In this document: piece by piece, positions 5,571-46,394 of the stretch | Layout: every line of letters begins with the position of its first letter | Position numbering within the stretch: position 1 is the first letter of the stretch | Origin: Escherichia phage vB_EcoM_G17 | DNA: 64,000 bases | Strand: one strand, 5' to 3' | Sequence record: MK327931.1 | Program-made: the position numbers and the translations under genes | Notes under the pieces: model-generated | Told to the model about the DNA's origin: nothing | What the model saw: the letters and a program-made list of their open reading frames with translations, nothing else | Database searches by the model: none

Positions 5571-6803
5571 TTACTTATACCATTGCATTTCTCTGATATC
5601 AATGATAATTTTTGATGCTAATTTAATGTTTGGTTTTTTGGGAAGTACTGATTTCTTATATAGAACATCACGAATGTATTGTACTTTATCATCGAAATAT
5701 TCTAATACTTCTTCATACTTCCACTTACCATTACGAATATCCATCAACATTTGTGCATCAGGTCGTTTAACTTGAATAATTCCACTCTGTAAAGCTTCTT
5801 CTGCACTATTCAAAAGTCTAATTGTGTGCATAGCATGTTTACAATCGTATCCGTGTTGTGATTCTAAAACAGCACGTTTGGCATTACGATTTTCTTTCCA
5901 TTTATGATAACTTTTCCTATTCTCACTATTCTCCTGATATTCTTTTTCGTTAAATTTTACAATTAGTTCTGGTTTGGTTTTCAACTCTTCAGTACTACGT
6001 TCTTTTGAAAAATAACGCAATGAACCATCATGGTTAATAGTGCTTTCATTAGGATTCTTAACAATCGCAAAAATGTTTTCTCCGTAATGAATTAGTTCAT
6101 AACCATTATTAAAATTCAATAAATTGAAATCACGATCAAGAATTTTTTCAGTAGTGTAGTTATGCACTAATCTTACGAAATGATATTGCTTTAATGGATT
6201 TTTCGAAACTAACTGCAATGATGTATCACGCATATATTTTTCAAAATCAATCTTTTTAGCATTAAATGGATGTAAGTTGGATGTATCTAAACGTTCAACA
6301 AGATACTGTGGGAATGAATCATACATCCACGCAAGAACCTCATCGACAGGGTGTTCTTCTAAAATCTCATTTAATCGTTTTTCAGCAATACGCTCTTTAT
6401 CCATCCAACCGTGATGATTTGTCATACGCTTAATCTGATTATATGCATATCCAGTGTATGAAAATGCAATCTTGGAACTAAGAAGTTTTTGGTTAAATGA
6501 ACGAAGATAGTCATAAATTTCAGTACTTTCCACAATGTGTTCAGGTTCAACCCAAAGTGATTCAAGAATATTAGGGTTAGCTTCAGTGTATAATTTTAAA
6601 TACTGATTCAACTCATAGAATTTAGTATCTTCTTCGCTTTTGTCAGCTACCTCTTTGACCTTATAGAAGGGTGTAAGAATAAATTCTTTATTAGCAAGAA
6701 AAATACCACGATAATCAGTATCACTTTCCGGTGTACTGGTTCCGTAGGCTTGTGACCCAGCCAAGTGTTTCACTATTGTTTGTTCAATATATTGGTTATT
6801 CAT
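5571..6803 (-). CDS. DNA polymerase beta-superfamily nucleotidyltransferase (predicted)
   Basis: N-terminal GSQAYGTSTPESDTDYRG matches the hG[GS]...DxD nucleotidyltransferase signature. Confidence 0.55.
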   Translation of the reverse strand: MNNQYIEQTIVKHLAGSQAYGTSTPESDTDYRGIFLANKEFILTPFYKVKEVADKSEEDTKFYELNQYLKLYTEANPNILESLWVEPEHIVESTEIYDYLRSFNQKLLSSKIAFSYTGYAYNQIKRMTNHHGWMDKERIAEKRLNEILEEHPVDEVLAWMYDSFPQYLVERLDTSNLHPFNAKKIDFEKYMRDTSLQLVSKNPLKQYHFVRLVHNYTTEKILDRDFNLLNFNNGYELIHYGENIFAIVKNPNESTINHDGSLRYFSKERSTEELKTKPELIVKFNEKEYQENSENRKSYHKWKENRNAKRAVLESQHGYDCKHAMHTIRLLNSAEEALQSGIIQVKRPDAQMLMDIRNGKWKYEEVLEYFDDKVQYIRDVLYKKSVLPKKPNIKLASKIIIDIREMQWYK

Positions 6804-21044: not shown

Positions 21045-21421
21045 TTAGTAAAACACGAATTATTACTGATAAGTTCATCAAGTACTTTTTGTACTTCGAT
21101 AGAATTAATATCAACTTTGTAATAATTATAGTTTTTAACTCTAAAATGTTCTTTTGATATATCAACTTTAAATTCAATAATATCAAGATTACCAATAAAA
21201 TCAGACTTATCAGTTCTTAAATCCAAAATACCTAATTCCGGTTTTTGTGGTTTACATAAAATCAAACCAAATTTATTTTCTTCAAATGCCTGATTAAACA
21301 TATCATAATAATCACTAATAACAAATCTAATATTATCAGTGCTTAACTTTCCTGATTTTCCTTTTTTATAAACAGAAACAATGTTTAGTTCAAAGGTTTT
21401 ACCAAAGCGTGTGATTTTCAT
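21041..21421 (-). CDS. hypothetical protein
   Basis: 126-aa ORF, 4-nt overlaps. Confidence 0.5.
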   Translation of the reverse strand: MKITRFGKTFELNIVSVYKKGKSGKLSTDNIRFVISDYYDMFNQAFEENKFGLILCKPQKPELGILDLRTDKSDFIGNLDIIEFKVDISKEHFRVKNYNYYKVDINSIEVQKVLDELISNNSCFTK

Positions 21422-22389
21422 TTTGGGCTATAACCACTTTTAATTTTAGAAATTACTTTCTTCTCGAAGAACTTACGTGCTTCTTCAATAGTTTCGAATT
21501 CTTCACCATCTGTAGTACTGGTTTTACCAATAGCACCGTACTCAATAATTACTTCACACACTGGAGCATTCAATTCAATATTATAGAATTTGTTTGAAGA
21601 ACCGTGAACATATTCCAAATGTACATTATCAGGAATGTTCTGTACATAATCATAGTTCTTGAAGATAATATCAATCATATTTTCTTCGCCGCGATCAGGA
21701 AATAGTTCAGTATTATTCAGTACTAAACGCTGTGCAGCACGGAACATATCAAAATATTGTTCGCCTTTTTTCAGTTCTTTTGTATCAGAACAGAAATGAC
21801 CATAGTATTCTACATAATCATTCCAAGGATAAATTCCTTCATCAGCAGTTTCAGACACGTAAGTTTCATCTTGTGGAACTTTAAAACCACGAGTTTTTGG
21901 ATGAGAAATTAAGCACAGTGAAATATTATGACCGATATCTGAATCATCAGTAATACTACCACCAACCATATGAACAACATTTTTAATACTTTCAAAATCT
22001 ACATCTTCAATTTCATGATACATTAAATGTTCTTCAATATTACTTACTAGTAATGAATTACCATTTCCGGCATCGAATTCAAAAATGAAAAGTTCTACAC
22101 AATCTTCTTCTTTCATTTCAATAGTATCACTGAGTTTAATATACTCATTTTTTAATTGTTCAATATTTTCATGAGAACCAAAACTATAACGTGAACTGAT
22201 ATAACTACTACCGTCCAACCATCCCATATCCCAAGGTTCTTCTGACATGTATTCTGAGCTATAGAAATCAGTCAAATCATCTCTCTGAGTACAAACCGTA
22301 AGAGAACGAACATTACTAAGACCTTGAACTTCAAGATTCAGTACTGTAGTATTGCCAATTTTTTGTTCAGAAATAATTTTAGTTTTCAT
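21418..22389 (-). CDS. hypothetical protein with WGR-like C-terminal domain
   Basis: C-terminus SSNKFYNIELNAPVCEVIIEYGAIGKTSTTDGEEFETIEEARKFFEKKVISKIKSGY resembles the WGR fold pattern (motif recalled from memory). Confidence 0.5.
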   Translation of the reverse strand: MKTKIISEQKIGNTTVLNLEVQGLSNVRSLTVCTQRDDLTDFYSSEYMSEEPWDMGWLDGSSYISSRYSFGSHENIEQLKNEYIKLSDTIEMKEEDCVELFIFEFDAGNGNSLLVSNIEEHLMYHEIEDVDFESIKNVVHMVGGSITDDSDIGHNISLCLISHPKTRGFKVPQDETYVSETADEGIYPWNDYVEYYGHFCSDTKELKKGEQYFDMFRAAQRLVLNNTELFPDRGEENMIDIIFKNYDYVQNIPDNVHLEYVHGSSNKFYNIELNAPVCEVIIEYGAIGKTSTTDGEEFETIEEARKFFEKKVISKIKSGYSPK

Positions 22390-24650: not shown

Positions 24651-26090
24651 TTACATATTTTCTTCAGCAAATTCTGCAAGTGGTGAACGAACAACACCTT
24701 CTAGTTCGATGACACGACAACCTGCCCAATCTTTAAACTTCTCAGTTACATATGTCAAACCACTGTTAACAGGACTAATAAACTTACTGTCAATCTGACT
24801 CAAGTTACCCATAATTACTACTTTACAGTTTAATCCTGCTCGTGTCAAGATTGTTTTGGCTTGTGCAGGTGTAATGTTTTGGAATTCATCAACTACTAGA
24901 ATAGTGTTGGTGAATGAACGTCCACGTACAAAGTTTAGTGCTTTAAATTGAATAACATTACGTTTCATAATCTCTTCAATACTACCTTGAGGGTTAGCAT
25001 CATCTTTATGAAGAAACTCTAACGCGTCAATTGCGGCTCCACAGAATGGAATCACTTTTTCTGCTTCTGAACCTGGCAAGAAACCAATATCTTCAAACTG
25101 TGAGTCTTGAGTTTTAGAGAAGATGATTCGGTCGTATTTACGTTTTTCCAGTACTAATTCTAATGCAGTCGCAATCGTAATTAGTGTTTTACCAGTACCA
25201 GCAGAACCTAGCAGTACTGTTAGATGTACATCAGGATCGAGAATACTGTTGATGGCGAGTGCTTGTTGGATATTCTTTGCTTTAATATCCCATACTTTAG
25301 CACGTAAAGCTACTGATTGTCCAATATCTTGGAATACCAAAATATCTTCTGGTGTTAGTGTTCCATCATCTTCCTCAATTGCTGATTGACCTTCGTACAC
25401 AAATAATACGTCTGCATCATCATATAGATAATCCCCGATGCATAGATTTTGTGGGAGCAAATGCTCAATCAAGCTTTTGGAAATGTAATGATACAAACGA
25501 CGACCAACTTGTTCGGATTGAATATTAGTATTGGTTAAGTTGCTATATACTTCCCAAAAATTGATTTCCAAATGGTGTTGACCAATGTGAATCAAATCAC
25601 TATCACCAATAACAATATCATGGCGATAATCTTGTACCTCGACACCATAACTTAGTGCTTTGATACGCATGTTGATATCACGAGTTACCAGTACTGATTC
25701 TGTTGCTAAAGCTACCAGAATGATTTTATCATCAGGTACTGTGCTTTTGAGAAGGGTTTGAACTTTCTCTTCTGAACCTTTAGTACGAATTAGTGCTTCA
25801 GCTTCTTCGTTTGTAATAACAAACAATTTGCTATCAGGATTCATATTGGTATGAACATCAGCAATATTAACACCAGTACTACTAATCTCATCATGTGATG
25901 CATCTGCAATAATTGCTTCAATGTTACGAATAGCAACACGAGCATCGCGTGAAACATCTACATTACGACTCTTAATTGAATCCAATTCTTCCAGTACTGT
26001 AAATGGTAGAATGATTGCAGCACCATCAAAAGCAATAGATGCATTAGGGTCAGATAGTAGTACGTTTGTGTCAATTGTATATTTTTTCAT
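24651..26090 (-). CDS. phoH: PhoH-like ATPase with N-terminal PIN-like domain
   Basis: Walker A LLGSAGTGKTLITIA; overall PhoH/YlaK-type architecture. Confidence 0.85.
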   Translation of the reverse strand: MKKYTIDTNVLLSDPNASIAFDGAAIILPFTVLEELDSIKSRNVDVSRDARVAIRNIEAIIADASHDEISSTGVNIADVHTNMNPDSKLFVITNEEAEALIRTKGSEEKVQTLLKSTVPDDKIILVALATESVLVTRDINMRIKALSYGVEVQDYRHDIVIGDSDLIHIGQHHLEINFWEVYSNLTNTNIQSEQVGRRLYHYISKSLIEHLLPQNLCIGDYLYDDADVLFVYEGQSAIEEDDGTLTPEDILVFQDIGQSVALRAKVWDIKAKNIQQALAINSILDPDVHLTVLLGSAGTGKTLITIATALELVLEKRKYDRIIFSKTQDSQFEDIGFLPGSEAEKVIPFCGAAIDALEFLHKDDANPQGSIEEIMKRNVIQFKALNFVRGRSFTNTILVVDEFQNITPAQAKTILTRAGLNCKVVIMGNLSQIDSKFISPVNSGLTYVTEKFKDWAGCRVIELEGVVRSPLAEFAEENM

Positions 26091-26150: not shown

Positions 26151-26453
26151 TTACATATTTGGTTCGTATTCAACATAGCAACGTGAACCTCGAACCTTTT
26201 CTTCCCAGCACTCCTGGTAAACAAGTTGACCAATTGAAACTGGTTCTCTTGATAGTCCATTACGTACTTCACCATTTTGGGTTTTATACATAAATGAACA
26301 TTTGGACTCGCTACATTGTCCTAAACTAACAACTTCTGCGGTATTGTAGTGAATGTTGGTACGCTTAGTGTTCTCGTGATACTGTCCGAACCAAAGAACT
26401 CCTGCACCTAACAGAACAGTACAAATAAGACTTTTGATGTGTGTTTGAATCAT
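26151..26453 (-). CDS. membrane-anchored Cys-rich small protein
   Basis: N-terminal hydrophobic helix (LICTVLLGAGVLWF) then soluble domain with five Cys. Confidence 0.45.
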   Translation of the reverse strand: MIQTHIKSLICTVLLGAGVLWFGQYHENTKRTNIHYNTAEVVSLGQCSESKCSFMYKTQNGEVRNGLSREPVSIGQLVYQECWEEKVRGSRCYVEYEPNM

Positions 26454-26770
26454 AATGAGTTAAATCCATTGTTTAAGTATGTTTCAATATTAATTTTACC
26501 AACAGGATTACTACTGTGAACAAAGTACTCAAACGGTTCTTTAATATTATTATCAAACATATAATCAATAAGAAACTTAGCAAAAGAATATCCAGTCTTT
26601 TCGTCTTCGCTCACATCACCCAAGTCATGGTCGAATGATACAAATGCTGGAATTCCATTTTCAATAACATATTCACATGCACTTTTAAAGTCACGACATA
26701 CCACCATATCTTGGTTTGGATAATATAGATTTGCATCACGAATATCATCCAAAAACATTGAGTAAGACAT
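26450..26770 (-). CDS. stand-alone receiver (REC)-like domain protein
   Basis: Acidic residues spaced as in CheY-type receivers: FLDDIRD ... FVSFDHDLGD ... FVHSSNPVGK; ATGA-coupled to Nudix gene. Confidence 0.4.
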   Translation of the reverse strand: MSYSMFLDDIRDANLYYPNQDMVVCRDFKSACEYVIENGIPAFVSFDHDLGDVSEDEKTGYSFAKFLIDYMFDNNIKEPFEYFVHSSNPVGKINIETYLNNGFNSL

Positions 26771-26779
26771 GTTAAACTC

Positions 26780-27331
26780 CTATAGATAACTAATTAGTAA
26801 GTTTTCTTTTTGAACCAGATACTCCAATTCTTGTTTTGCTGTACCGATGAAGTTCTGTGTCATAAGATTATTATATCCCGCTTCTCGATTTTGTCCCTTA
26901 GAATAACGAGAAATATGACATAAATTTACACCAGCAACTTCTGCACTTGCATGTTTAGCATTAGTGTATCCATCTCTAATGTGTTTCAACTCGTCATAGG
27001 TTACTTCATAGCTAAAACTGTGACTGTTTGCACCTGGGTAAATTTCAAAAGTTTTGAGTGGTCGAAGATGGGAAACAAAAATATTGTAATCCATTTCTTC
27101 TTGAACTTCACGACGCAACGCATCTTCTAGTGAGATATCAGTACTTTCTACGGTTCCACCACATCCACCAAGAAGACCATCCCATCGTAATTGCAGTAAT
27201 ACTAAATTTACTTCTGGTATATCATTCAACTCATAGTTTTTGTAAGGGTTGCATTTTCTTGCAAAGAAATAACAAAATACAAAATTTGCACGTGTGCCAT
27301 ATTCACCAAAGGGAACTTCTTTAACACTCAT
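26780..27331 (-). CDS. Nudix hydrolase
   Basis: Nudix box GGCGGTVESTDISLEDALRREVQEEMDY (Gx5Ex7REUxEExGU pattern). Confidence 0.75.
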   Translation of the reverse strand: MSVKEVPFGEYGTRANFVFCYFFARKCNPYKNYELNDIPEVNLVLLQLRWDGLLGGCGGTVESTDISLEDALRREVQEEMDYNIFVSHLRPLKTFEIYPGANSHSFSYEVTYDELKHIRDGYTNAKHASAEVAGVNLCHISRYSKGQNREAGYNNLMTQNFIGTAKQELEYLVQKENLLISYL

Positions 27332-28086
27332 TTCATACGTTCCTTAATTATAGTCTCTAGATGCGGTATTGCTTTGGTTGCTGGCTTGATAACTTTTTCA
27401 TTAAACAAAAAATCATTATCATTTTTACGAATGTTAACATTAACACTATAACATGGTAATGCTGCTGCTAATCTCGACCATACCAGTACTGTATCGCTAC
27501 TACCAATTACAATAACTGTATCATTTTCATTAAGAGATTTCAACACATTATTTCGTTCTTCGTAAATTGGTAAGCGAATACCATCAACATAACGATGATA
27601 TTCTCCAATCATTACTACATTTGGTTTAGCAAAAACATCATGTTTTGGTATGTATGGTTCGTATCCGCAGTTAATAACATTATAATCATCGGAATTGATA
27701 CTATAATTTTCAATAACTTCGCACAAGTTTCCATGAAGTTTAAGCTCATGACCACCAATACGAGTATAAAGATCGTCCATGTTAGAAGTCATATGAAGGA
27801 AGCAATCACCATATTGATCTTCTAACGATTTTATAAAATAATGCATTGCATTCGGTTCGCATTGTCCCAATTTTACACGTAATGTATTATAGAAAGAATG
27901 AACAACATGATATTTTGTAGTTAAACTAGCAATGTTACATACATCATTAATTTTAAATGTATCCCACAAACCATCATCAAATCGAAAAGGTTCCATACCA
28001 CTTTCAACAGAAAGTCCTGCACCTGATATAATCAGTAATCGCTTTTTACCTTCATTGCTTATAAATTTTTCTGATATCATATTCAA
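27328..28086 (-). CDS. Sir2-family (sirtuin-like) NAD-dependent enzyme
   Basis: Rossmann motif ISGAGLSVESGMEPFR and TSNMDDLYTRIGGHELKLHG, matching sirtuin GAGIS...GIPxFR and TQNIDxLH...LHG. Confidence 0.75.
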   Translation of the reverse strand: MNMISEKFISNEGKKRLLIISGAGLSVESGMEPFRFDDGLWDTFKINDVCNIASLTTKYHVVHSFYNTLRVKLGQCEPNAMHYFIKSLEDQYGDCFLHMTSNMDDLYTRIGGHELKLHGNLCEVIENYSINSDDYNVINCGYEPYIPKHDVFAKPNVVMIGEYHRYVDGIRLPIYEERNNVLKSLNENDTVIVIGSSDTVLVWSRLAAALPCYSVNVNIRKNDNDFLFNEKVIKPATKAIPHLETIIKERMK

Positions 28087-28283
28087 TCCTTATAAAAAAC
28101 AATTAAATATATTGATAATAACAGAATGATTCCAATATGATAGGCATACATAAAATTATTATCTTTGTGATAACCATTGGATTTCAAGTCCCTATATAAG
28201 CATTTAGCATTGTTATAAATTACAACAATAGAAAAAACTATAAAAAAACTCAAAACCCATTCATAAATTGTGTATGCCATCAT
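28083..28283 (-). CDS. small membrane protein (two TM helices)
   Basis: 66 aa, two hydrophobic segments; ATGA overlap with Sir2 gene. Confidence 0.45.
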   Translation of the reverse strand: MMAYTIYEWVLSFFIVFSIVVIYNNAKCLYRDLKSNGYHKDNNFMYAYHIGIILLLSIYLIVFYKD

Positions 28284-28310: not shown

Positions 28311-28904
28311 TTAATATTTTAAAACATCAAACTCTTCGCTTACGCTTGTTACATTATCACTAACAATTTTAAAAATTGATTTGATACGTTCGTGTAGTGG
28401 TTTTTTAGATTCGTTCTCAACTTCAATATATGCTTGCATTGCTGCAATTGCATGATATGTCCCACTACCTACTGCGGTAATTCTTGTTTTAGGTTGTAGT
28501 ACTGAAAAGTCTTCTTGAACTTCATAGATTGTATGATTGTGGAGAATGATAAATTGTCCACCTCCTACATCTTGTGATGCATCTCGTGCACCCCATTCTT
28601 CTTTAAACATTTGACGAATAATTGGAATAACTTTAAGAACCAAATATTGTGAAAATGTTTGACTAGCATCTTGTTCAGGTAAATTAAGGTTATAATTTAA
28701 CAACTGACCCATACGAAATGATGTAGTATAACCCAATGCCATTACTTCTTTAGTTCTAGTTAGTCCATCATCATGTAACTTGATAAATTCTTTCTCGAAT
28801 ACCTTTGGCTCAGTTTGAACAGTTTTTGTAAATCCATTGCTTCCTAACTTATCCCCAGCAATAAAAGAACTTACTCCGTCAGTGTGTGCAATAATACAGG
28901 TCAT
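28311..28904 (-). CDS. HslV/proteasome-beta-like Ntn-hydrolase peptidase
   Basis: Start at Met24 of track ORF gives MTCIIAHTDGVSSFIAGDKLGSNG (Thr after Met, as in HslV TTIVSV...IAGDGQ) and ITAVGSGTYHAIAAMQA (HslV AIGSGGxYAxAAA); GGAG SD and ATGA overlap with upstream gene. Confidence 0.65.
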   Translation of the reverse strand: MTCIIAHTDGVSSFIAGDKLGSNGFTKTVQTEPKVFEKEFIKLHDDGLTRTKEVMALGYTTSFRMGQLLNYNLNLPEQDASQTFSQYLVLKVIPIIRQMFKEEWGARDASQDVGGGQFIILHNHTIYEVQEDFSVLQPKTRITAVGSGTYHAIAAMQAYIEVENESKKPLHERIKSIFKIVSDNVTSVSEEFDVLKY

Positions 28905-29231: not shown

Positions 29232-29855
29232 TTATTGTTTGACTGAACCGTAAAAAACCAGTTCTGGTTTTGTTAATATTACAACATCTTCACCACGAGA
29301 ACGACTAACTCTAAATAGAACTTCTGGTGGGATTCCATTTGCTGCATATAGTGAAAAAAGGAAACCTACCTTTGTTGCCATTTCTTCGGTAAAAGTTGAT
29401 AACTGTCTTACAGACACAAATGAATTATCACCATCAGTAACATTACTTTTAATCGAAATGTTATGAAGACCCAGTACTGAGCGATTTGTCATATATCGCT
29501 TTTCGGGAGATACACTAAAGAATACCACAGTACATGCTGAATTGCAATACCTAGAAACAATTAAATTTATCCCATTGTCTCTAACAAAGTTTGCCATTCG
29601 AATACCTGCATCAAAATCACCACCAGGAGATGTAATTGTGATGGTATCATAGTGTTCTTTATCATACAACTCTATCATACGCTTGAGTGACCCATCTGTA
29701 ATATCTGATATGAAATATACATTTCGGGTTTCAGGATTATACTTTATCACATTTTTACTTTCAATACCAGCACTGGCTGGAAAATTTATTAACAATAGAA
29801 ACATTGCTGCTTGTATCACTTCAAGCCATAGTCTTTTCATATAACAAGTCCTCAA
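29232..29855 (-). CDS. secreted ClpP/S49-fold serine peptidase-like protein
   Basis: N-terminal signal peptide (LLLINFPASAG); ITSPGGDFDAGIRMANF...NSACTVVF parallels ClpP INSPGGxVxAG...AASMGA. Confidence 0.55.
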   Translation of the reverse strand: MRTCYMKRLWLEVIQAAMFLLLINFPASAGIESKNVIKYNPETRNVYFISDITDGSLKRMIELYDKEHYDTITITSPGGDFDAGIRMANFVRDNGINLIVSRYCNSACTVVFFSVSPEKRYMTNRSVLGLHNISIKSNVTDGDNSFVSVRQLSTFTEEMATKVGFLFSLYAANGIPPEVLFRVSRSRGEDVVILTKPELVFYGSVKQ

Positions 29856-36922: not shown

Positions 36923-38125
36923 TTATAGATAATACTTTCCAATATAAAGTGGATTACTAATTGATAGTTGAACGTGACATGGTTTGTCTTGGTAGTAACG
37001 AGTGCTTGATGTTTTGCGTTCATTTGGTGGGAAGAATGGGGAACGATAGCCATTCCATGTACTAAATGATGAGTGTTCATTAATATCAACATCCATTACC
37101 ATAATCCCATTATCATCAATTTGAACTGGATATGCACTAAAGCGTTCAAATTTATCATTATAATGGATATTATAATCTCCACTACGCCCATAATAACTAC
37201 GCGTTGTATTATTACTTACACCAAAAAATACGCGATATGTTTGTTCATTATCTTTAGTCATAAATGGTACGTTCTCGTTGAAACGTCCATTATTCATAAG
37301 ATCATCAACATTTATTTCTTCGTATTTAATTTTAAGGTCTTTTGCTTTAAATGATTTATTGTGTACCAGTACTGGAATGTTAGATTCACCTAATGGGTTA
37401 TGTCTGTTTGTTCTATAGCTTTGCCAAAATTCATTAGCAAGTTTAATTTCTTCATCTGCCGTAGTCTTCTTATTCAAGAGTGCACGAGGTTCAAGATTGT
37501 AATTATCCAAACGTTGATTCAATGCATAAGTTCCACGAGTACTGTTAAAAAGTAAATGATAAACTGAACTTTTGTCGGGATATGCAAATTCTTTAGTTTT
37601 CTTTATACAAATTGCATGTACTTTACCGCAGTAATAGTAATCTTCTTTAAGATAAGTGAAACCATCACCAACTTTAAGACCTGCTACAGTTTCTTTTTGT
37701 TGTTCTTTTTTATTTTCTTTTTCAACTAACTTAGCAAACGTTTTTGTTTTACCATTAATTAATTCTAAGTTATTGTTGAAAAACATTGGGTCTACAAAAA
37801 CACCTTTGATTATATCGTTATTGATAATTAAATCATTCATGTTTTTTGCACTAATCATAAATTCAAATCCTTCTGGGTGACGGATCGTGAAATATGTTTC
37901 TCGTGCATGAGTTGTTAATTTATCAACTACACAAAATCCCGTAGTTGGAACGTTGTCAATATATAACGATGGAAGATTGTTCTTCTTTGCCCAGTACTCT
38001 GCTCTCTCTTTCTTTGTTTCAAACGCTTTTGTATGTGATTTTGTTGCATCGATAATAAAACCATCAACTTGGTTGTGGTTTACATAGGAACGTGCAACAA
38101 ATAACTTCTCTGGAAAATCCATCAA
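36923..38125 (-). CDS. hypothetical protein
   Basis: 400-aa ORF. Confidence 0.55.
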   Translation of the reverse strand: MMDFPEKLFVARSYVNHNQVDGFIIDATKSHTKAFETKKERAEYWAKKNNLPSLYIDNVPTTGFCVVDKLTTHARETYFTIRHPEGFEFMISAKNMNDLIINNDIIKGVFVDPMFFNNNLELINGKTKTFAKLVEKENKKEQQKETVAGLKVGDGFTYLKEDYYYCGKVHAICIKKTKEFAYPDKSSVYHLLFNSTRGTYALNQRLDNYNLEPRALLNKKTTADEEIKLANEFWQSYRTNRHNPLGESNIPVLVHNKSFKAKDLKIKYEEINVDDLMNNGRFNENVPFMTKDNEQTYRVFFGVSNNTTRSYYGRSGDYNIHYNDKFERFSAYPVQIDDNGIMVMDVDINEHSSFSTWNGYRSPFFPPNERKTSSTRYYQDKPCHVQLSISNPLYIGKYYL

Positions 38126-38541
38126 ATTGTCCTCATTGTGCTGATTGCTTTTAATGTGTCAAACAATGCACCATATTTTACTTGCATTAGTTGATCACCA
38201 GCAGGAAGATTCATACGCATAACAGCCATGTCTTCAATCATTTCAGACGTACACAGTACTGCTACACAGGTAATAGCATCATTCAATCCAGCTTCATTGA
38301 ATTTGGCAAACGGAACTTTTCCCTGTTTGCTAAGGTTGTTATAATAAGAATTTAACTTATCATGTCCACCAGCATTTAGTACTACAATAGTTTCGTGTTC
38401 ATAGTACCATTCATCAATAATAGTACTGAAAGCAGTACCTTCATATTCTTTAATTAGTTTAACACCAGCATGGAATGCTTGAATACCAGCTTGGACACCT
38501 TGGCAGTACATATTAGTTAAGCAATACAATTTCATTTCCAT
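38122..38541 (-). CDS. hypothetical protein
   Basis: 139-aa ORF. Confidence 0.5.
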   Translation of the reverse strand: MEMKLYCLTNMYCQGVQAGIQAFHAGVKLIKEYEGTAFSTIIDEWYYEHETIVVLNAGGHDKLNSYYNNLSKQGKVPFAKFNEAGLNDAITCVAVLCTSEMIEDMAVMRMNLPAGDQLMQVKYGALFDTLKAISTMRTI

Positions 38542-43222: not shown

Positions 43223-44155
43223 TTAGAAATTTCCTTCAGCCACTTGGAAAACTTTCAACCCAAGTAGCTTACGCCACATGAATACAACTTGATCGCGGTC
43301 ATCATATACCTTTTTAACATCGTAATGATCAACCACATTTTTCATGTACAGGTCGAATTTTACAACATCATCAGGACGTTTATCATCGATATCTCGCATA
43401 AACAATGCATCGTAAGGAACACCCCAATTCTTAAGCCACTGTTCGGTATCAGCACGACACCCTTCAGTACGCCCACTCATGACGATAATCTTGCGTTTAT
43501 GAAAAACTGCTTCAGCGATAATAGACAAAATAACTTCTTCATCAGGTGTATCCTGAAGAACAGTACTTTCATCGTAAGGATTACGACCCCATTTATGAGC
43601 AAGAGTTCCATCGATATCAACGATGATAGCAGCTTCGCGTGAATTACCATAGTAACCAATGTGTAATGCCTTACTATAATAGTACGTATCTGCCATTGTG
43701 TCAATGATATCATCTTGTACTGAACGCTCACGCTGGAGGTTATATTTCTTACAAAGTTTTACGAACTCTTTAATCTTAAAGAATTCATGAACATCTGCAC
43801 CACGGTCTTCATTAGGTACAAAATCATCATAGAAGTTCTTTTCTTTGTAATCATAACCATTATCTTTAGCCCATACTTTCCAGAGATTACGGAAATGTTG
43901 TTTAAGGTTTGTATCGGATATGATGATGTTCCAACCATTCTCTGCTGCTGAATTTGCTGCACTGAACTGTAAATTAGTTACGTACTGCTCATTAGCATCG
44001 TTGAATTTGTAAGCATCATGTGACCCAGCCATAGATTCACGAATATCATCACGGTTGATGTTGATAGTCTTGGATTTGGCATTTTTAATTTCTTGAACTG
44101 CCCATGTGGTTTTACCACACCCAGGTAATCCAACTGTTAGTGTAATAGTTGGCAT
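43223..44155 (-). CDS. pseT: polynucleotide 5'-kinase / 3'-phosphatase (T4 Pnk-like)
   Basis: N-terminal P-loop LTVGLPGCGKTTWA and C-terminal HAD-type phosphatase motif IVDIDGTLA. Confidence 0.85.
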   Translation of the reverse strand: MPTITLTVGLPGCGKTTWAVQEIKNAKSKTININRDDIRESMAGSHDAYKFNDANEQYVTNLQFSAANSAAENGWNIIISDTNLKQHFRNLWKVWAKDNGYDYKEKNFYDDFVPNEDRGADVHEFFKIKEFVKLCKKYNLQRERSVQDDIIDTMADTYYYSKALHIGYYGNSREAAIIVDIDGTLAHKWGRNPYDESTVLQDTPDEEVILSIIAEAVFHKRKIIVMSGRTEGCRADTEQWLKNWGVPYDALFMRDIDDKRPDDVVKFDLYMKNVVDHYDVKKVYDDRDQVVFMWRKLLGLKVFQVAEGNF

Positions 44156-45251: not shown

Positions 45252-46394
45252 CTAAAAATCCTTTAGTACAATTTTCATGTATTTTATAAGAGTCTCTTTG
45301 TAATCAACTTTCTTATTGTTATACATTGCAAAGGCCAAGCCCTGACGATTCAGTTCATTAGTTAAACACTCCTGAACCTTCATTGCGAATTCCTTTCGCT
45401 CCAAGTGCTTGTGTTCCTTGACGAAGCTTTCTACTTCATCTTGTAATGCATTATAGCACGAAAATACCAATTGTTCCATTCTTAATATCTTTTGCATAGC
45501 ATATTCATCAGTACTGAACAATTGTTTTAAATCATCACTTGAACCATTTAATACTGCTTCATATAAATGAGAATCAATAATAATACTATCTTTTGTAAGA
45601 TGTAATGAACTGTACCAGTCAGTCTTTATTTTACACATTGTCCCATTATTTAGGATGCACACAAAACCCTCAATATCAAGCATTTTATGAACTTCCTCCA
45701 CGCTTTCACGGAAGGTATTTCGTACCGGAAAAGTGTGATGAATATCTTTTCCAGTCATATTAGTACTGTACTGTGCAAGACATGGAAACTTATCACGTAG
45801 TGCTTTACCACATAGCAACTCACCACTCACACGATGACGAACGTTCAGTACAAACAGTTGTTCTACCTGATATGGTAATACAATTCGGTACTCTGGGCTT
45901 GTATACTCCATATTAACTGTGTAACCTAAACGTTCCGCTTCGTCGATGTACTGATACAAATTCTGGTTCTCGTTAATAAGTCGAGTACTGTTAATCGCAT
46001 GGTCAGAATACAATGCAGTATGTGATTTACAACGAATCTCACCATCATTATCACGGTAAGTACTGATAATCGAACCATCCAACTTAGGCATCACTACCGC
46101 AATGTCATCGCATGTGGTGTTAGCAGGGAACATTGTAGCAGGATTCTCGTAAGCATTGAAGAACTTTTTCATTGTACGTGCTGCACAACGTATCATTTCA
46201 CCTTCTTCATCAATTTCCCACATAGAGCCACGGGTTTCCAACGCATTTGGTTGCATGAAATCAGTGTATGATGCTAGACGATAACTGAATACACGATACG
46301 TGCCACCAGCAGGACTTTTATGATCCACATAAAAGAATGCATCGTTTGTATTACATAAGTGCATTAAATCTTCATATATTTGCAAAAGGGTCAT
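45252..46394 (-). CDS. rnlA: RNA ligase 1 (T4 Rnl1-like)
   Basis: Closely parallels T4 Rnl1 as recalled: FFYVDHKSPAGGTYRVFSYRLASYTDF, ALETRGSMWEI, KKFFNAYENP, lysine motif PKLDGSI. Confidence 0.85.
   Translation of the reverse strand: MTLLQIYEDLMHLCNTNDAFFYVDHKSPAGGTYRVFSYRLASYTDFMQPNALETRGSMWEIDEEGEMIRCAARTMKKFFNAYENPATMFPANTTCDDIAVVMPKLDGSIISTYRDNDGEIRCKSHTALYSDHAINSTRLINENQNLYQYIDEAERLGYTVNMEYTSPEYRIVLPYQVEQLFVLNVRHRVSGELLCGKALRDKFPCLAQYSTNMTGKDIHHTFPVRNTFRESVEEVHKMLDIEGFVCILNNGTMCKIKTDWYSSLHLTKDSIIIDSHLYEAVLNGSSDDLKQLFSTDEYAMQKILRMEQLVFSCYNALQDEVESFVKEHKHLERKEFAMKVQECLTNELNRQGLAFAMYNNKKVDYKETLIKYMKIVLKDF

Follow-up and report, generated by a model that had tools for sequence, protein, structure and literature searches.

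A distinct clade of phage sirtuins has been described by Iyer, Burroughs, Anantharaman and Aravind (2022, Viruses 14:1977; PMC9503650), whose section 3.7.3 recognises three genomic contexts: a type-1 neighbourhood of sirtuin, Nudix, cREC and PIN genes in Rak2-like jumbo phages, with Serratia phage BF as prototype; an association with a T4-like RNA ligase, cREC, a kinase and MazG in rV5/Mydo-like phages; and a pairing with a HAD 'Swiss-army-knife' phosphatase in T5-like phages. The same section proposes that the sirtuin works like KptA/Tpt1 on RNA 2'-phosphates, in a nicotinamide adenine dinucleotide (NAD)-dependent RNA repair, and refers to cREC as experimentally uncharacterised. The cREC domain ('cyclic-phosphate processing receiver') had been defined from jumbo phages in section 3.4.8 and Fig. 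6b-d of Iyer et al. 2021 (PMC7824862), where it was predicted to process cyclic phosphates, was linked with NAD/ADP-ribose (ADPr) enzymes and, together with Nudix, was predicted to linearise and degrade ADPr-derived signals. Here we analyse a locus of the first type, a cluster of five genes at positions 26151-28283 of a stretch of 64,000 nucleotides (64 kb) from Escherichia phage vB_EcoM_G17 (MK327931.1), hereafter the window, to which all gene positions refer. Computational work has already predicted this combination (Iyer et al. 2022, PMC9503650), and the genome that holds it is published and annotated; the locus adds no new type of system. An initial annotation, made from the sequence alone, had called the combination not recognisably characterised, which overlooked that description but held with regard to experiment, our literature searches having turned up no experiments on phage sirtuins or cREC.

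Five open reading frames (ORFs), all on the minus strand, fill the region. From the first to the last transcribed, they encode TM66, a 66-aa peptide with two hydrophobic helices (28083-28283; assigned from the ORF and its hydrophobicity, with a weak match to PHROG 18969, 'membrane protein'); Sir2, of 250 aa from an ATG at 28080 (27328-28080; PF02146, E 3.7e-20; PHROG 2162, E 2e-77), or of 252 aa from an alternative in-frame TTG at 28086; a Nudt16-like Nudix protein of 183 aa (26780-27331; PF22327, E 8e-19; PF00293, E 5e-7); cREC, of 106 aa (26450-26770; PF20274 cREC_REC, E 1.5e-22); and TM100, a Cys-rich protein of 100 aa with an N-terminal hydrophobic segment (26151-26453; PHROG 14661, E 1e-44). 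A further minus-strand gene, coding for a 479-aa PIN + PhoH protein resembling PhoH2 RNA helicase/nucleases (24651-26090; PIN_4, E 7e-20; PhoH, E 7e-44), lies beyond the region, yet is a member of the conserved block; its match to the NCBIfam model 'RNA 5'-3' helicase PhoH2' (E 2.4e-44) stays under the family cut-off. The genes are separated by +2 nt (TM66/Sir2), -4 nt (Sir2/Nudix, ATGA), +9 nt (Nudix/cREC), -4 nt (cREC/TM100) and +60 nt (TM100/PIN-PhoH), and the Sir2, Nudix, cREC and PIN genes span 3.4 kb of one strand. The five genes and domain assignments of the initial annotation were borne out, ORFs being present at these coordinates and Pfam and PHROGs concurring; the members of its gene order were right, but the two-transmembrane protein said to follow the others is actually the first gene, since plus-strand order had been used. 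In RefSeq, the PBECO4 counterparts gp091-gp095 are annotated as PhoH-like, membrane protein, hypothetical, nudix hydrolase and Sir2.

Escherichia phage Sharanji matches the region with 100% identity; in PBECO4, phAPEC6 and other jumbo phages (~350 kb) of the genus Asteriusvirus, to which the window belongs, identity is 99.3-99.9%. Weaker matches reach jumbo phages of Klebsiella, Erwinia, Pectobacterium and Serratia. Among 65 viral Sir2 loci, the order Sir2-Nudix-cREC-TM100-PIN-PhoH was kept in 15 of the 16 Rak2-like ones, the contig of the sixteenth stopping right after Sir2; Sir2 identity among these loci was about 41-63%, with one further locus, that of phage 121Q, identical. The same block order was found in all eight Rak2-like loci present among 80 viral cREC loci. 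TM100 comes directly after cREC in every Rak2-like locus, and PIN-PhoH after TM100 in every complete one. Order and close spacing alike are preserved between genera, at Sir2 identities as low as 43%. Because the same gene order recurs in 15/16 Rak2-like loci, the cluster is real and the recurrence of its arrangement is far above chance. A word-indexed homologue search retrieved Rak2-like orthologues only (Sir2, n=28; Nudix, n=12). Moreover, Nudix and cREC form a single polypeptide of ~300 aa in nine of 15 Rak2-like loci (CBB and eight more), as verified in Pectobacterium phage CBB (Nudt16-like, 5.6e-17; cREC, 3.8e-24), and an independent metagenomic representative (P0161) is likewise a Nudix-cREC fusion; because of these fusions the two proteins are taken to work together.

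Sir2 matched PF02146 with 73.1 bits (cut-off 24), and the closest solved sequence was CobB (6rxj/1s5p, E ~1e-22), followed by archaeal Sir2 and SIRT5. Its AlphaFold2 model (pLDDT 91.7) retrieved CobB first in Foldseek (TM-score 0.77-0.86, 28% identity), and all 50 matches listed were deacylase-type sirtuins. G20-A21-G22, F32-R33, N100, D102/D103 and H116-G117 are invariant or nearly so across the phage lineages and CobB, and the FGE glutamate (E160) is invariant. Because the GAG loop, the FR motif, N100, D102/103, H116-G117 and the FGE Glu are conserved, Sir2 should bind and cleave NAD+ and is predicted to be an active NAD+-consuming enzyme. The catalytic His and Asn, which the initial annotation had wished to see checked, are thus present (H116, N100/D102), and its description of the cluster as NAD-linked agrees with these motifs and with the intact Nudix box. 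The zinc-binding module, named there as a further point to check, is absent: the CobB zinc cysteines (C...CxCC) had no counterpart in five aligned lineages (Asteriusvirus, CBB, rV5-like, T5-like and KVP40), and the small-domain zinc region of the phage proteins holds zero conserved Cys. The class-III Tyr64 is retained; the residue at +3 is Leu/Met in Rak2-like phages, and Arg68, at +4, is invariant. Residues invariant within the phage clade are C48, Y57, H61, G139-Y140, K152, Y173 and W201, and a clade-specific Trp, likewise invariant, stands where V-x-P usually follows the GTS motif. The NCBIfam CobB models matched with 93 bits (E ~1e-26), short of the equivalog cut-off of 318 bits. The protein is classed as a zinc-less, CobB-like (class III) sirtuin. 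The initial likening to defence NADases did not survive, the resemblance being to CobB deacylases: no PADLOC defence Sir2 model matched at E <= 0.01, the top of the Foldseek results was CobB, and no linked defence partner (SLOG, HerA and the like) was seen among the cluster neighbours. Homologues of this Sir2 were found in 974 of 50,697 phage records.

The Nudix protein exceeded the PF22327 cut-off of 27 with 68.6 bits, and its Nudix box is intact, G58, G59, E62, R74, E75, E78 and E79 being invariant. Its nearest solved relatives are the U8 snoRNA-decapping enzymes NUDT16/X29 (E ~3e-12); the family would thus be macromolecule-acting, its kin being RNA-decapping enzymes and not ADP-ribose pyrophosphatases. 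NUDT16 is also an inosine diphosphate (IDP) hydrolase and a hydrolase of ADP-ribose conjugates. A profile search of 1.84 billion representatives yielded 476 Nudt16-like relatives, most of them stand-alone, and a scan of ten longer ones gave one cREC fusion, one fusion to Ham1/ITPase (P0206) and two to HD_4 (P0210, P0258). HD_4 is a RelA/SpoT-type HD domain, and the Ham1 and HD_4 fusions point to house-cleaning or alarmone roles for some Nudt16-like members.

The cREC model (pLDDT 96.8) is a four-stranded domain of alternating strands and helices whose acidic sites match receiver positions, with DD after strand 1 and Asp after strand 3, and with Ser after strand 4; there is neither a fifth strand nor its Lys. 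In an alignment of 63 sequences D8, D9, R11, P41, F46, D47, H48, D49, L50, N88 and G91 are invariant, and H85 and S86 nearly so. The invariant D47-x-D49 would mimic HAD motif I, with its nucleophile and a general acid two residues on, which fits a predicted phosphohydrolase acting via an aspartyl-phosphate. The 'REC-like protein' of the initial annotation was thus right in its receiver-like fold and wrong if read as a signalling receiver, since the domain falls in a family already named, cREC, for which phosphoesterase activity is predicted (PMC7824862), and no histidine kinase was seen in any cREC context examined. Sequence searches of the PDB with cREC returned nothing usable, as did those with TM100 and with the WGR protein described below.

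All three contexts of Iyer et al. 2022 were reproduced by our census of the 65 viral Sir2 loci. Beside the 15 Rak2-like loci with Nudix, cREC, TM100 and PIN-PhoH as neighbours, it counted 24 T5-like loci with HAD_SAK_2 ~1 kb off; 11 rV5/Mydo-like loci, eight of them with cREC, accompanied by an RNA ligase, a P-loop kinase, a metallophosphoesterase and a MazG-like pyrophosphohydrolase; and ~12 other loci with no recognisable neighbours. In the rV5-like phage FFH2 an Rnl1-like ligase, cREC (E 9e-14), Sir2 and a PHROG 'nucleotide pyrophosphohydrolase' follow in that order, with divergent transcription of the P-loop kinase and metallophosphoesterase genes and a tRNA cluster alongside. In T5-like phages Sir2 is followed by HAD_SAK_2. 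In rV5-like phages the position of Nudix is held by the MazG-like pyrophosphohydrolase, and that a non-homologous enzyme takes its place there, next to Sir2 and cREC, suggests a pyrophosphatase step as part of the system. The occurrence of the phage Sir2 clade in three RNA-repair contexts (Rak2-, rV5/Mydo- and T5-like) supports a link with RNA. The window itself codes for a T4-type Pnkp (43223-44155, minus strand; HAD_PNKP, E 8.6e-44; AAA_33) and a T4 Rnl1-type RNA ligase (45252-46394, minus strand; T4_Rnl1_C, E 6.6e-17; RNA_lig_T4_1, E 1e-15), both outside the operon, which are probable partners of the block in one pathway.

Away from Rak2-like phages cREC keeps similar company. In 14 distinct non-Rak2 loci Rnl1, Pnkp or RlaP lay within 8 kb of cREC. 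A count of Pfam families in its vicinity, covering 55 non-Rak2 viral loci and the 146 ORFs of >=150 aa that lie no more than 1.9 kb away, was headed by RNA_ligase PF09414 (7), its OB domain (6), Metallophos (6) and AAA_33 (3); Sir2, NUDIX and Macro were not among the top 25 of this sample. In one locus (L020) an Rnl1-type ligase stands 61 nt from cREC. These associations involve at least two families of RNA ligase, Rnl1-type and PF09414-type, as well as a Metallophos-cREC pair in a bacterium; many of the census matches come from one metagenomic lineage and are not independent events. A distance-bin test of RNA-ligase enrichment around cREC was underpowered, the PF09414-type seed having yielded only two sequences, and most cREC homologues have neighbours of unknown function only. 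Because Rnl1- and PF09414-type ligases and Metallophos recur beside it, cREC tracks RNA ligation more than NAD metabolism. The bacterial pair was seen on the Malaciobacter mytili contig JAPRAA010000040.1 (L153, 5313-6321), where a calcineurin-like metallophosphoesterase lies 13 nt upstream of cREC amid housekeeping genes; seven viral loci and rV5-like phages show the same Metallophos-cREC pairing.

In sister genera, genes for NAD salvage accompany the block: NatV (NMNAT-Nudix) and NadV (Nampt) occur upstream of Sir2, at a distance of 0.6-4 kb, in RaK2-, Serratia BF- and CBB-like phages (loci L014, 2462-6120; L013, 2441-5637; L005, 640-3847). Nampt and NMNAT genes are absent from the 64-kb window, where only a weak cytidylyltransferase-like ORF was seen, and PBECO4-like phages are missing from the best 60 Nampt tblastn matches, among which every other Rak2-like genus is found. 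In the window the NadV/NatV position is held by two protease-like genes just upstream of the cluster on the minus strand (28311-28904 and 29232-29855), an HslV-like Ntn-hydrolase beginning with Met-Thr and a ClpP/NfeD-like protease with a hydrophobic N-terminus.

The reading we prefer, tentatively and as something short of probable, is that the block forms an NAD+-dependent module for RNA-end processing or repair, directed against host RNA-cleaving defences. In this pathway the sirtuin would use NAD+ to ADP-ribosylate a phosphate on damaged RNA, at a 2' or a terminal position; the catalytic His of the enzyme would then aid attack of the ADP-ribose 2''-OH on that phosphate, thus freeing the RNA hydroxyl and releasing nicotinamide and ADP-ribose 1'',2''-cyclic phosphate, as in the two-step chemistry of Tpt1/KptA. 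Such chemistry would be formally parallel to sirtuin deacylation. In the mechanisms of both sirtuins and Tpt1 the ribose 2'-OH attacks a group first joined at C1', and because of this shared attack an RNA-repair chemistry is plausible for a sirtuin. The cREC protein, with its Asp nucleophile and DxD motif, would open or remove a cyclic or terminal phosphate, whether at the 3' end of the RNA or on the by-product ADP-ribose, and the Nudt16-like Nudix would split the pyrophosphate of ADP-ribose, free or RNA-bound, giving AMP and phosphoribose. The PIN-PhoH2-like helicase/nuclease might handle the RNA substrate, and Pnkp and Rnl1 would complete healing and sealing; in the sister genera the adjacent NadV/NatV would remake NAD+ from the freed nicotinamide. 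The enzymes look active, because the catalytic motifs of Sir2, Nudix and cREC are all intact. The same RNA-repair idea was reached independently in the section of Iyer et al. 2022 cited above (PMC9503650). Of the reading offered by the initial annotation, the link with NAD stands, while the gene contexts favour RNA-end processing over manipulation of the NAD pool or destruction of defence signals.

Several observations weigh against an RNA-repair function. The Sir2 is nearest to the protein deacylase CobB in both sequence and fold and keeps the class-III Tyr and the adjacent Arg, and to our knowledge no sirtuin has so far been shown to act on RNA. The phage already carries a T4-type Pnkp/Rnl1 pair, which needs no 2'-phosphotransferase, and this ligase and kinase lie 17-18 kb from the operon. 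In a repair pathway a PIN nuclease would be unexpected, and so would a Cys-rich protein that is probably anchored in the membrane or exported. Iyer et al. list a 2H phosphoesterase for the type-1 neighbourhood, but none turned up in the cluster or among the flanking ORFs scanned between ~18 and 32 kb. Beyond Rak2-like and rV5-like phages cREC does not accompany Sir2: in the 72 non-Rak2 viral cREC loci neither a phage-type Sir2 nor a Nudt16-like Nudix was found within 8 kb (0/72). To these are added the ~12 Sir2 loci with no recognisable RNA-repair neighbour, the origin of many context counts from related phages, which makes them not independent, and the RNA-ligase adjacency counts, which stand without a random-locus baseline.

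The resemblance to CobB makes a host-takeover deacylase the first alternative to be considered, namely a CobB-like enzyme that strips acetyl, succinyl or similar groups from host or phage proteins, with Nudix and cREC disposing of the resulting O-acyl-ADP-ribose. CobB and SIRT5 are indeed the best matches in sequence and structure, the NCBIfam CobB hit is strong (E ~1e-26), the catalytic His and NAD motifs are intact, Tyr64 and Arg68 are invariant, and O-acetyl-ADP-ribose is hydrolysed by Nudix enzymes. Nevertheless, the score is far under the equivalog cut-off (93 vs 318 bits), the zinc module, which forms half of the peptide cleft, has lost every Cys, the V-x-P has given way to an invariant Trp, every recognisable context of the clade is one of RNA repair and not of protein modification, and no role is left for cREC, so that we regard this function as unlikely. 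Another possibility starts from NAD itself: Nudix and cREC may destroy NAD-derived signals or toxic ADP-ribose derivatives (cyclic ADPR isomers, ADPR phosphates), and, with NAD salvage, the module would counter NAD depletion. It is favoured by NadV/NatV lying 0.6-4 kb upstream in RaK2-, BF- and CBB-like phages, by the signal-degradation prediction made for cREC and Nudix in the cited section of Iyer et al. 2021 (PMC7824862), and by the report that phage NAD+ reconstitution counters NAD+-depleting defence (bioRxiv 10.1101/2024.02.11.579819). A sirtuin, however, consumes NAD+ and has no obvious part in either signal degradation or NAD+ restoration. The pathway of the reconstitution study is reportedly of the Nampt + Nmnat type. 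The phage analysed here keeps the block with no NadV/NatV in the window, its PBECO4-like relatives also being outside the best 60 Nampt matches. Moreover, it is RNA ligases and phosphoesterases, not NAD enzymes, that recur beside cREC, and no block protein meaningfully matches a PADLOC model; an anti-defence NAD module is in our judgement quite unlikely.

RNA would still be the substrate if the block served turnover of RNA 5' caps and host RNA decay, with Nudix removing NAD, ADPr and other caps, the sirtuin acting on NAD-capped RNA and PIN-PhoH2 degrading transcripts for host shut-off. This would suit the kinship of Nudix with the NUDT16/X29 decapping family and the strict linkage of the PIN-PhoH2-like helicase/nuclease to the block; T4 RNA, moreover, is NAD-capped, and the T4 Nudix protein NudE.1 decaps NAD-RNA in vitro (bioRxiv 10.1101/2024.04.04.588121). 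It leaves unexplained, however, why cREC and Sir2 are linked to RNA ligases and kinases in other phages, and the PhoH linkage may be lineage-specific synteny, PhoH-family genes being very common in phages. We know of no precedent for a sirtuin using NAD-RNA, and a role in cap turnover appears very unlikely. Equally slim is the chance that there is no joint pathway at all, but independent accessory genes held together by synteny, with Nudix as a nucleotide sanitiser such as a NUDT16-like hydrolase of IDP and inosine triphosphate (ITP). The sanitiser is kept alive by the presence of the Nudt16-like family also in nucleotide house-cleaning contexts, as its fusions to Ham1/ITPase and HD_4 illustrate, and independence would agree with the replacement of Nudix by a MazG-like pyrophosphohydrolase in rV5-like phages and with the genes of unknown function that alone flank most cREC homologues. 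Against it, the Nudix-cREC fusion, the 4-nt start/stop overlaps and an order maintained across genera at 43% identity argue for co-function, and the very pyrophosphohydrolase that takes the Nudix place beside Sir2 and cREC is non-homologous, as if the step and not the gene had been kept.

Among the accessory proteins, TM100 is as conserved as the enzymes of the block. Its N-terminal hydrophobic segment of 15-20 residues remains below the Kyte-Doolittle cut-off (1.6 over 19 residues) and may be a signal peptide or an anchor; the 'membrane-anchored Cys-rich protein' of the initial annotation is therefore Cys-rich with a hydrophobic N-terminus, as described, but its short segment may be a signal peptide rather than an anchor. 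It has five Cys, of which the four outside the hydrophobic segment are invariant in all orthologues (C-x4-C ... C-x9-C), within the conserved motifs LGQC...C and GQ(L/I)VYQxCW...CYV, and no Pfam, PDB or PADLOC match was obtained. TM66 is restricted to Asteriusvirus, the 121Q-like locus being its sole carrier among the Rak2-like loci, and in CBB-like phages its position is taken by an 80-aa Phage_zn_bind_2 protein; TM66 is thus genus-specific and probably not a core component. Small membrane proteins beside phage Sir2 genes recur in unrelated lineages. In an uncultured phage lineage (L156, 4452-7079) Sir2 is directly followed by a 108-aa protein, considered as a candidate cREC and rejected for its several hydrophobic segments, and a 188-aa protein ~1 kb upstream carries GVGSR...GKAEGSD motifs that are SLOG/DprA-like by eye. 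KVP40.0042, which overlaps the start of the KVP40 Sir2, was likewise tried as a divergent cREC and rejected (hhalign probability 0.1%). As for PIN-PhoH, the CBB paper lists PhoH among the proteins detected in RaK2 virions (PMC5259590), which raises the possibility that it is packaged.

The window has a GC content of ~33%, and its minus strand carries almost all genes. A promoter scan was uninformative (40 sites vs 34 expected by chance), and neither tRNAs nor Rfam families were found in the window. Outside the cluster and on the minus strand, it also encodes an RlaP-family nucleotidyltransferase (5571-6803) and a PTH2 peptidyl-tRNA hydrolase (38122-38541), which with Pnkp and Rnl1 make up a broad set for the upkeep of RNA and tRNA and likewise speak for an RNA-repair role of the block; between the DNA ligase gene and PTH2 lies a 400-aa ORF (36923-38125, minus strand) with no Pfam match and with PHROGs of unknown function only. 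A 323-aa protein (21418-22389, minus strand) has a C-terminal WGR domain (E 1e-10), a domain that also occurs in PARPs, and an N-terminal part of 255 residues with no PHROG or PDB match. A Pfam scan for 2H, Macro, NADAR and KptA was negative in the cluster, in both protease genes upstream of it and in ten more flanking ORFs (~18-32 kb), as it was in three ORFs near the BF-like block; a very divergent 2H could escape such a scan.

More speculative, and rather doubtful in our view, is the joint proposal that the phage Sir2 clade (~970 genomes) comprises the first RNA-substrate sirtuins, as a convergent analogue of Tpt1, that cREC is a new class of catalytic receiver-fold phosphoesterase working through an aspartyl-phosphate, and that in Rak2-like phages NadV/NatV close an NAD cycle around a block with a conserved Cys-rich membrane protein. 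If this were true, it would give sirtuins a nucleic acid as substrate and add a truly enzymatic branch to receiver domains, and phages would have a third route to undo RNA damage inflicted by host defences, besides T4 Pnkp/Rnl1 and the Tpt1-type. The Sir2 clade being widespread (T5-like, rV5-like, KVP40 and Rak2-like phages), one biochemical result would annotate ~1000 genomes; the value of the finding is that of a well-defined experimental target rather than of a discovery.

Compared with the known systems, the locus is closest to the type-1 neighbourhood of Iyer et al., sharing with it sirtuin, Nudix, cREC and PIN in the same order and in the same Rak2-like group, and two BF loci (L013, L094) show the block. 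It differs in that Nudix and cREC are separate genes in the window and fused in BF, that the NadV/NatV flanking the block in BF, RaK2 and CBB is missing from the window, that the 2H phosphoesterase given for type 1 in the passage concerned was not found in the cluster or the ORFs scanned, and that TM100 is not mentioned in the corresponding passages of the 2021 and 2022 papers. Taken singly, the Sir2 shares with CobB and SIRT5 the NAD-binding motifs, the catalytic His and the pocket Tyr of Y-x-x-R, and is closest to them in sequence and fold, but has lost all zinc Cys, has its Arg moved by one position in Rak2-like phages and falls below the equivalog cut-off. With the defence NADases ThsA, DSR1/2, Sir2-HerA and pAgo-Sir2 it has in common the Sir2 superfamily and the substrate NAD+; it lacks a fused sensor domain, such enzymes are absent from the 50 structural matches listed, and it is carried by a virulent phage, unlike the Sir2 NADases of defence islands. 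The likeness of Nudix to NUDT16/X29 extends over ~140 alignable residues, including the extended Nudix box GG-x-V-E...SLE-x-AL-x-RE-x-x-EE, at ~25-30% identity; the Nudix differs from them in being a phage protein, operonic with or fused to cREC. The cREC domain departs from two-component REC domains and HAD phosphatases in having four strands only and no conserved Lys, and in standing alone or fused to Nudix. With Tpt1/KptA the proposed logic is shared, NAD+ being spent to strip a phosphate from RNA and an ADP-ribose cyclic phosphate having then to be opened and degraded. The ADP-ribosyltransferase (ART) fold of Tpt1/KptA and the Rossmann fold of the sirtuin have no kinship in sequence or fold, none of the ORFs scanned was recognised as a Tpt1/KptA homologue, and the phage activity is purely a prediction; nevertheless, the rV5-like operon of ligase, kinase, cREC and Sir2 mirrors the fungal/plant-type set of ligase, kinase, cyclic phosphodiesterase (CPDase) and Tpt1.

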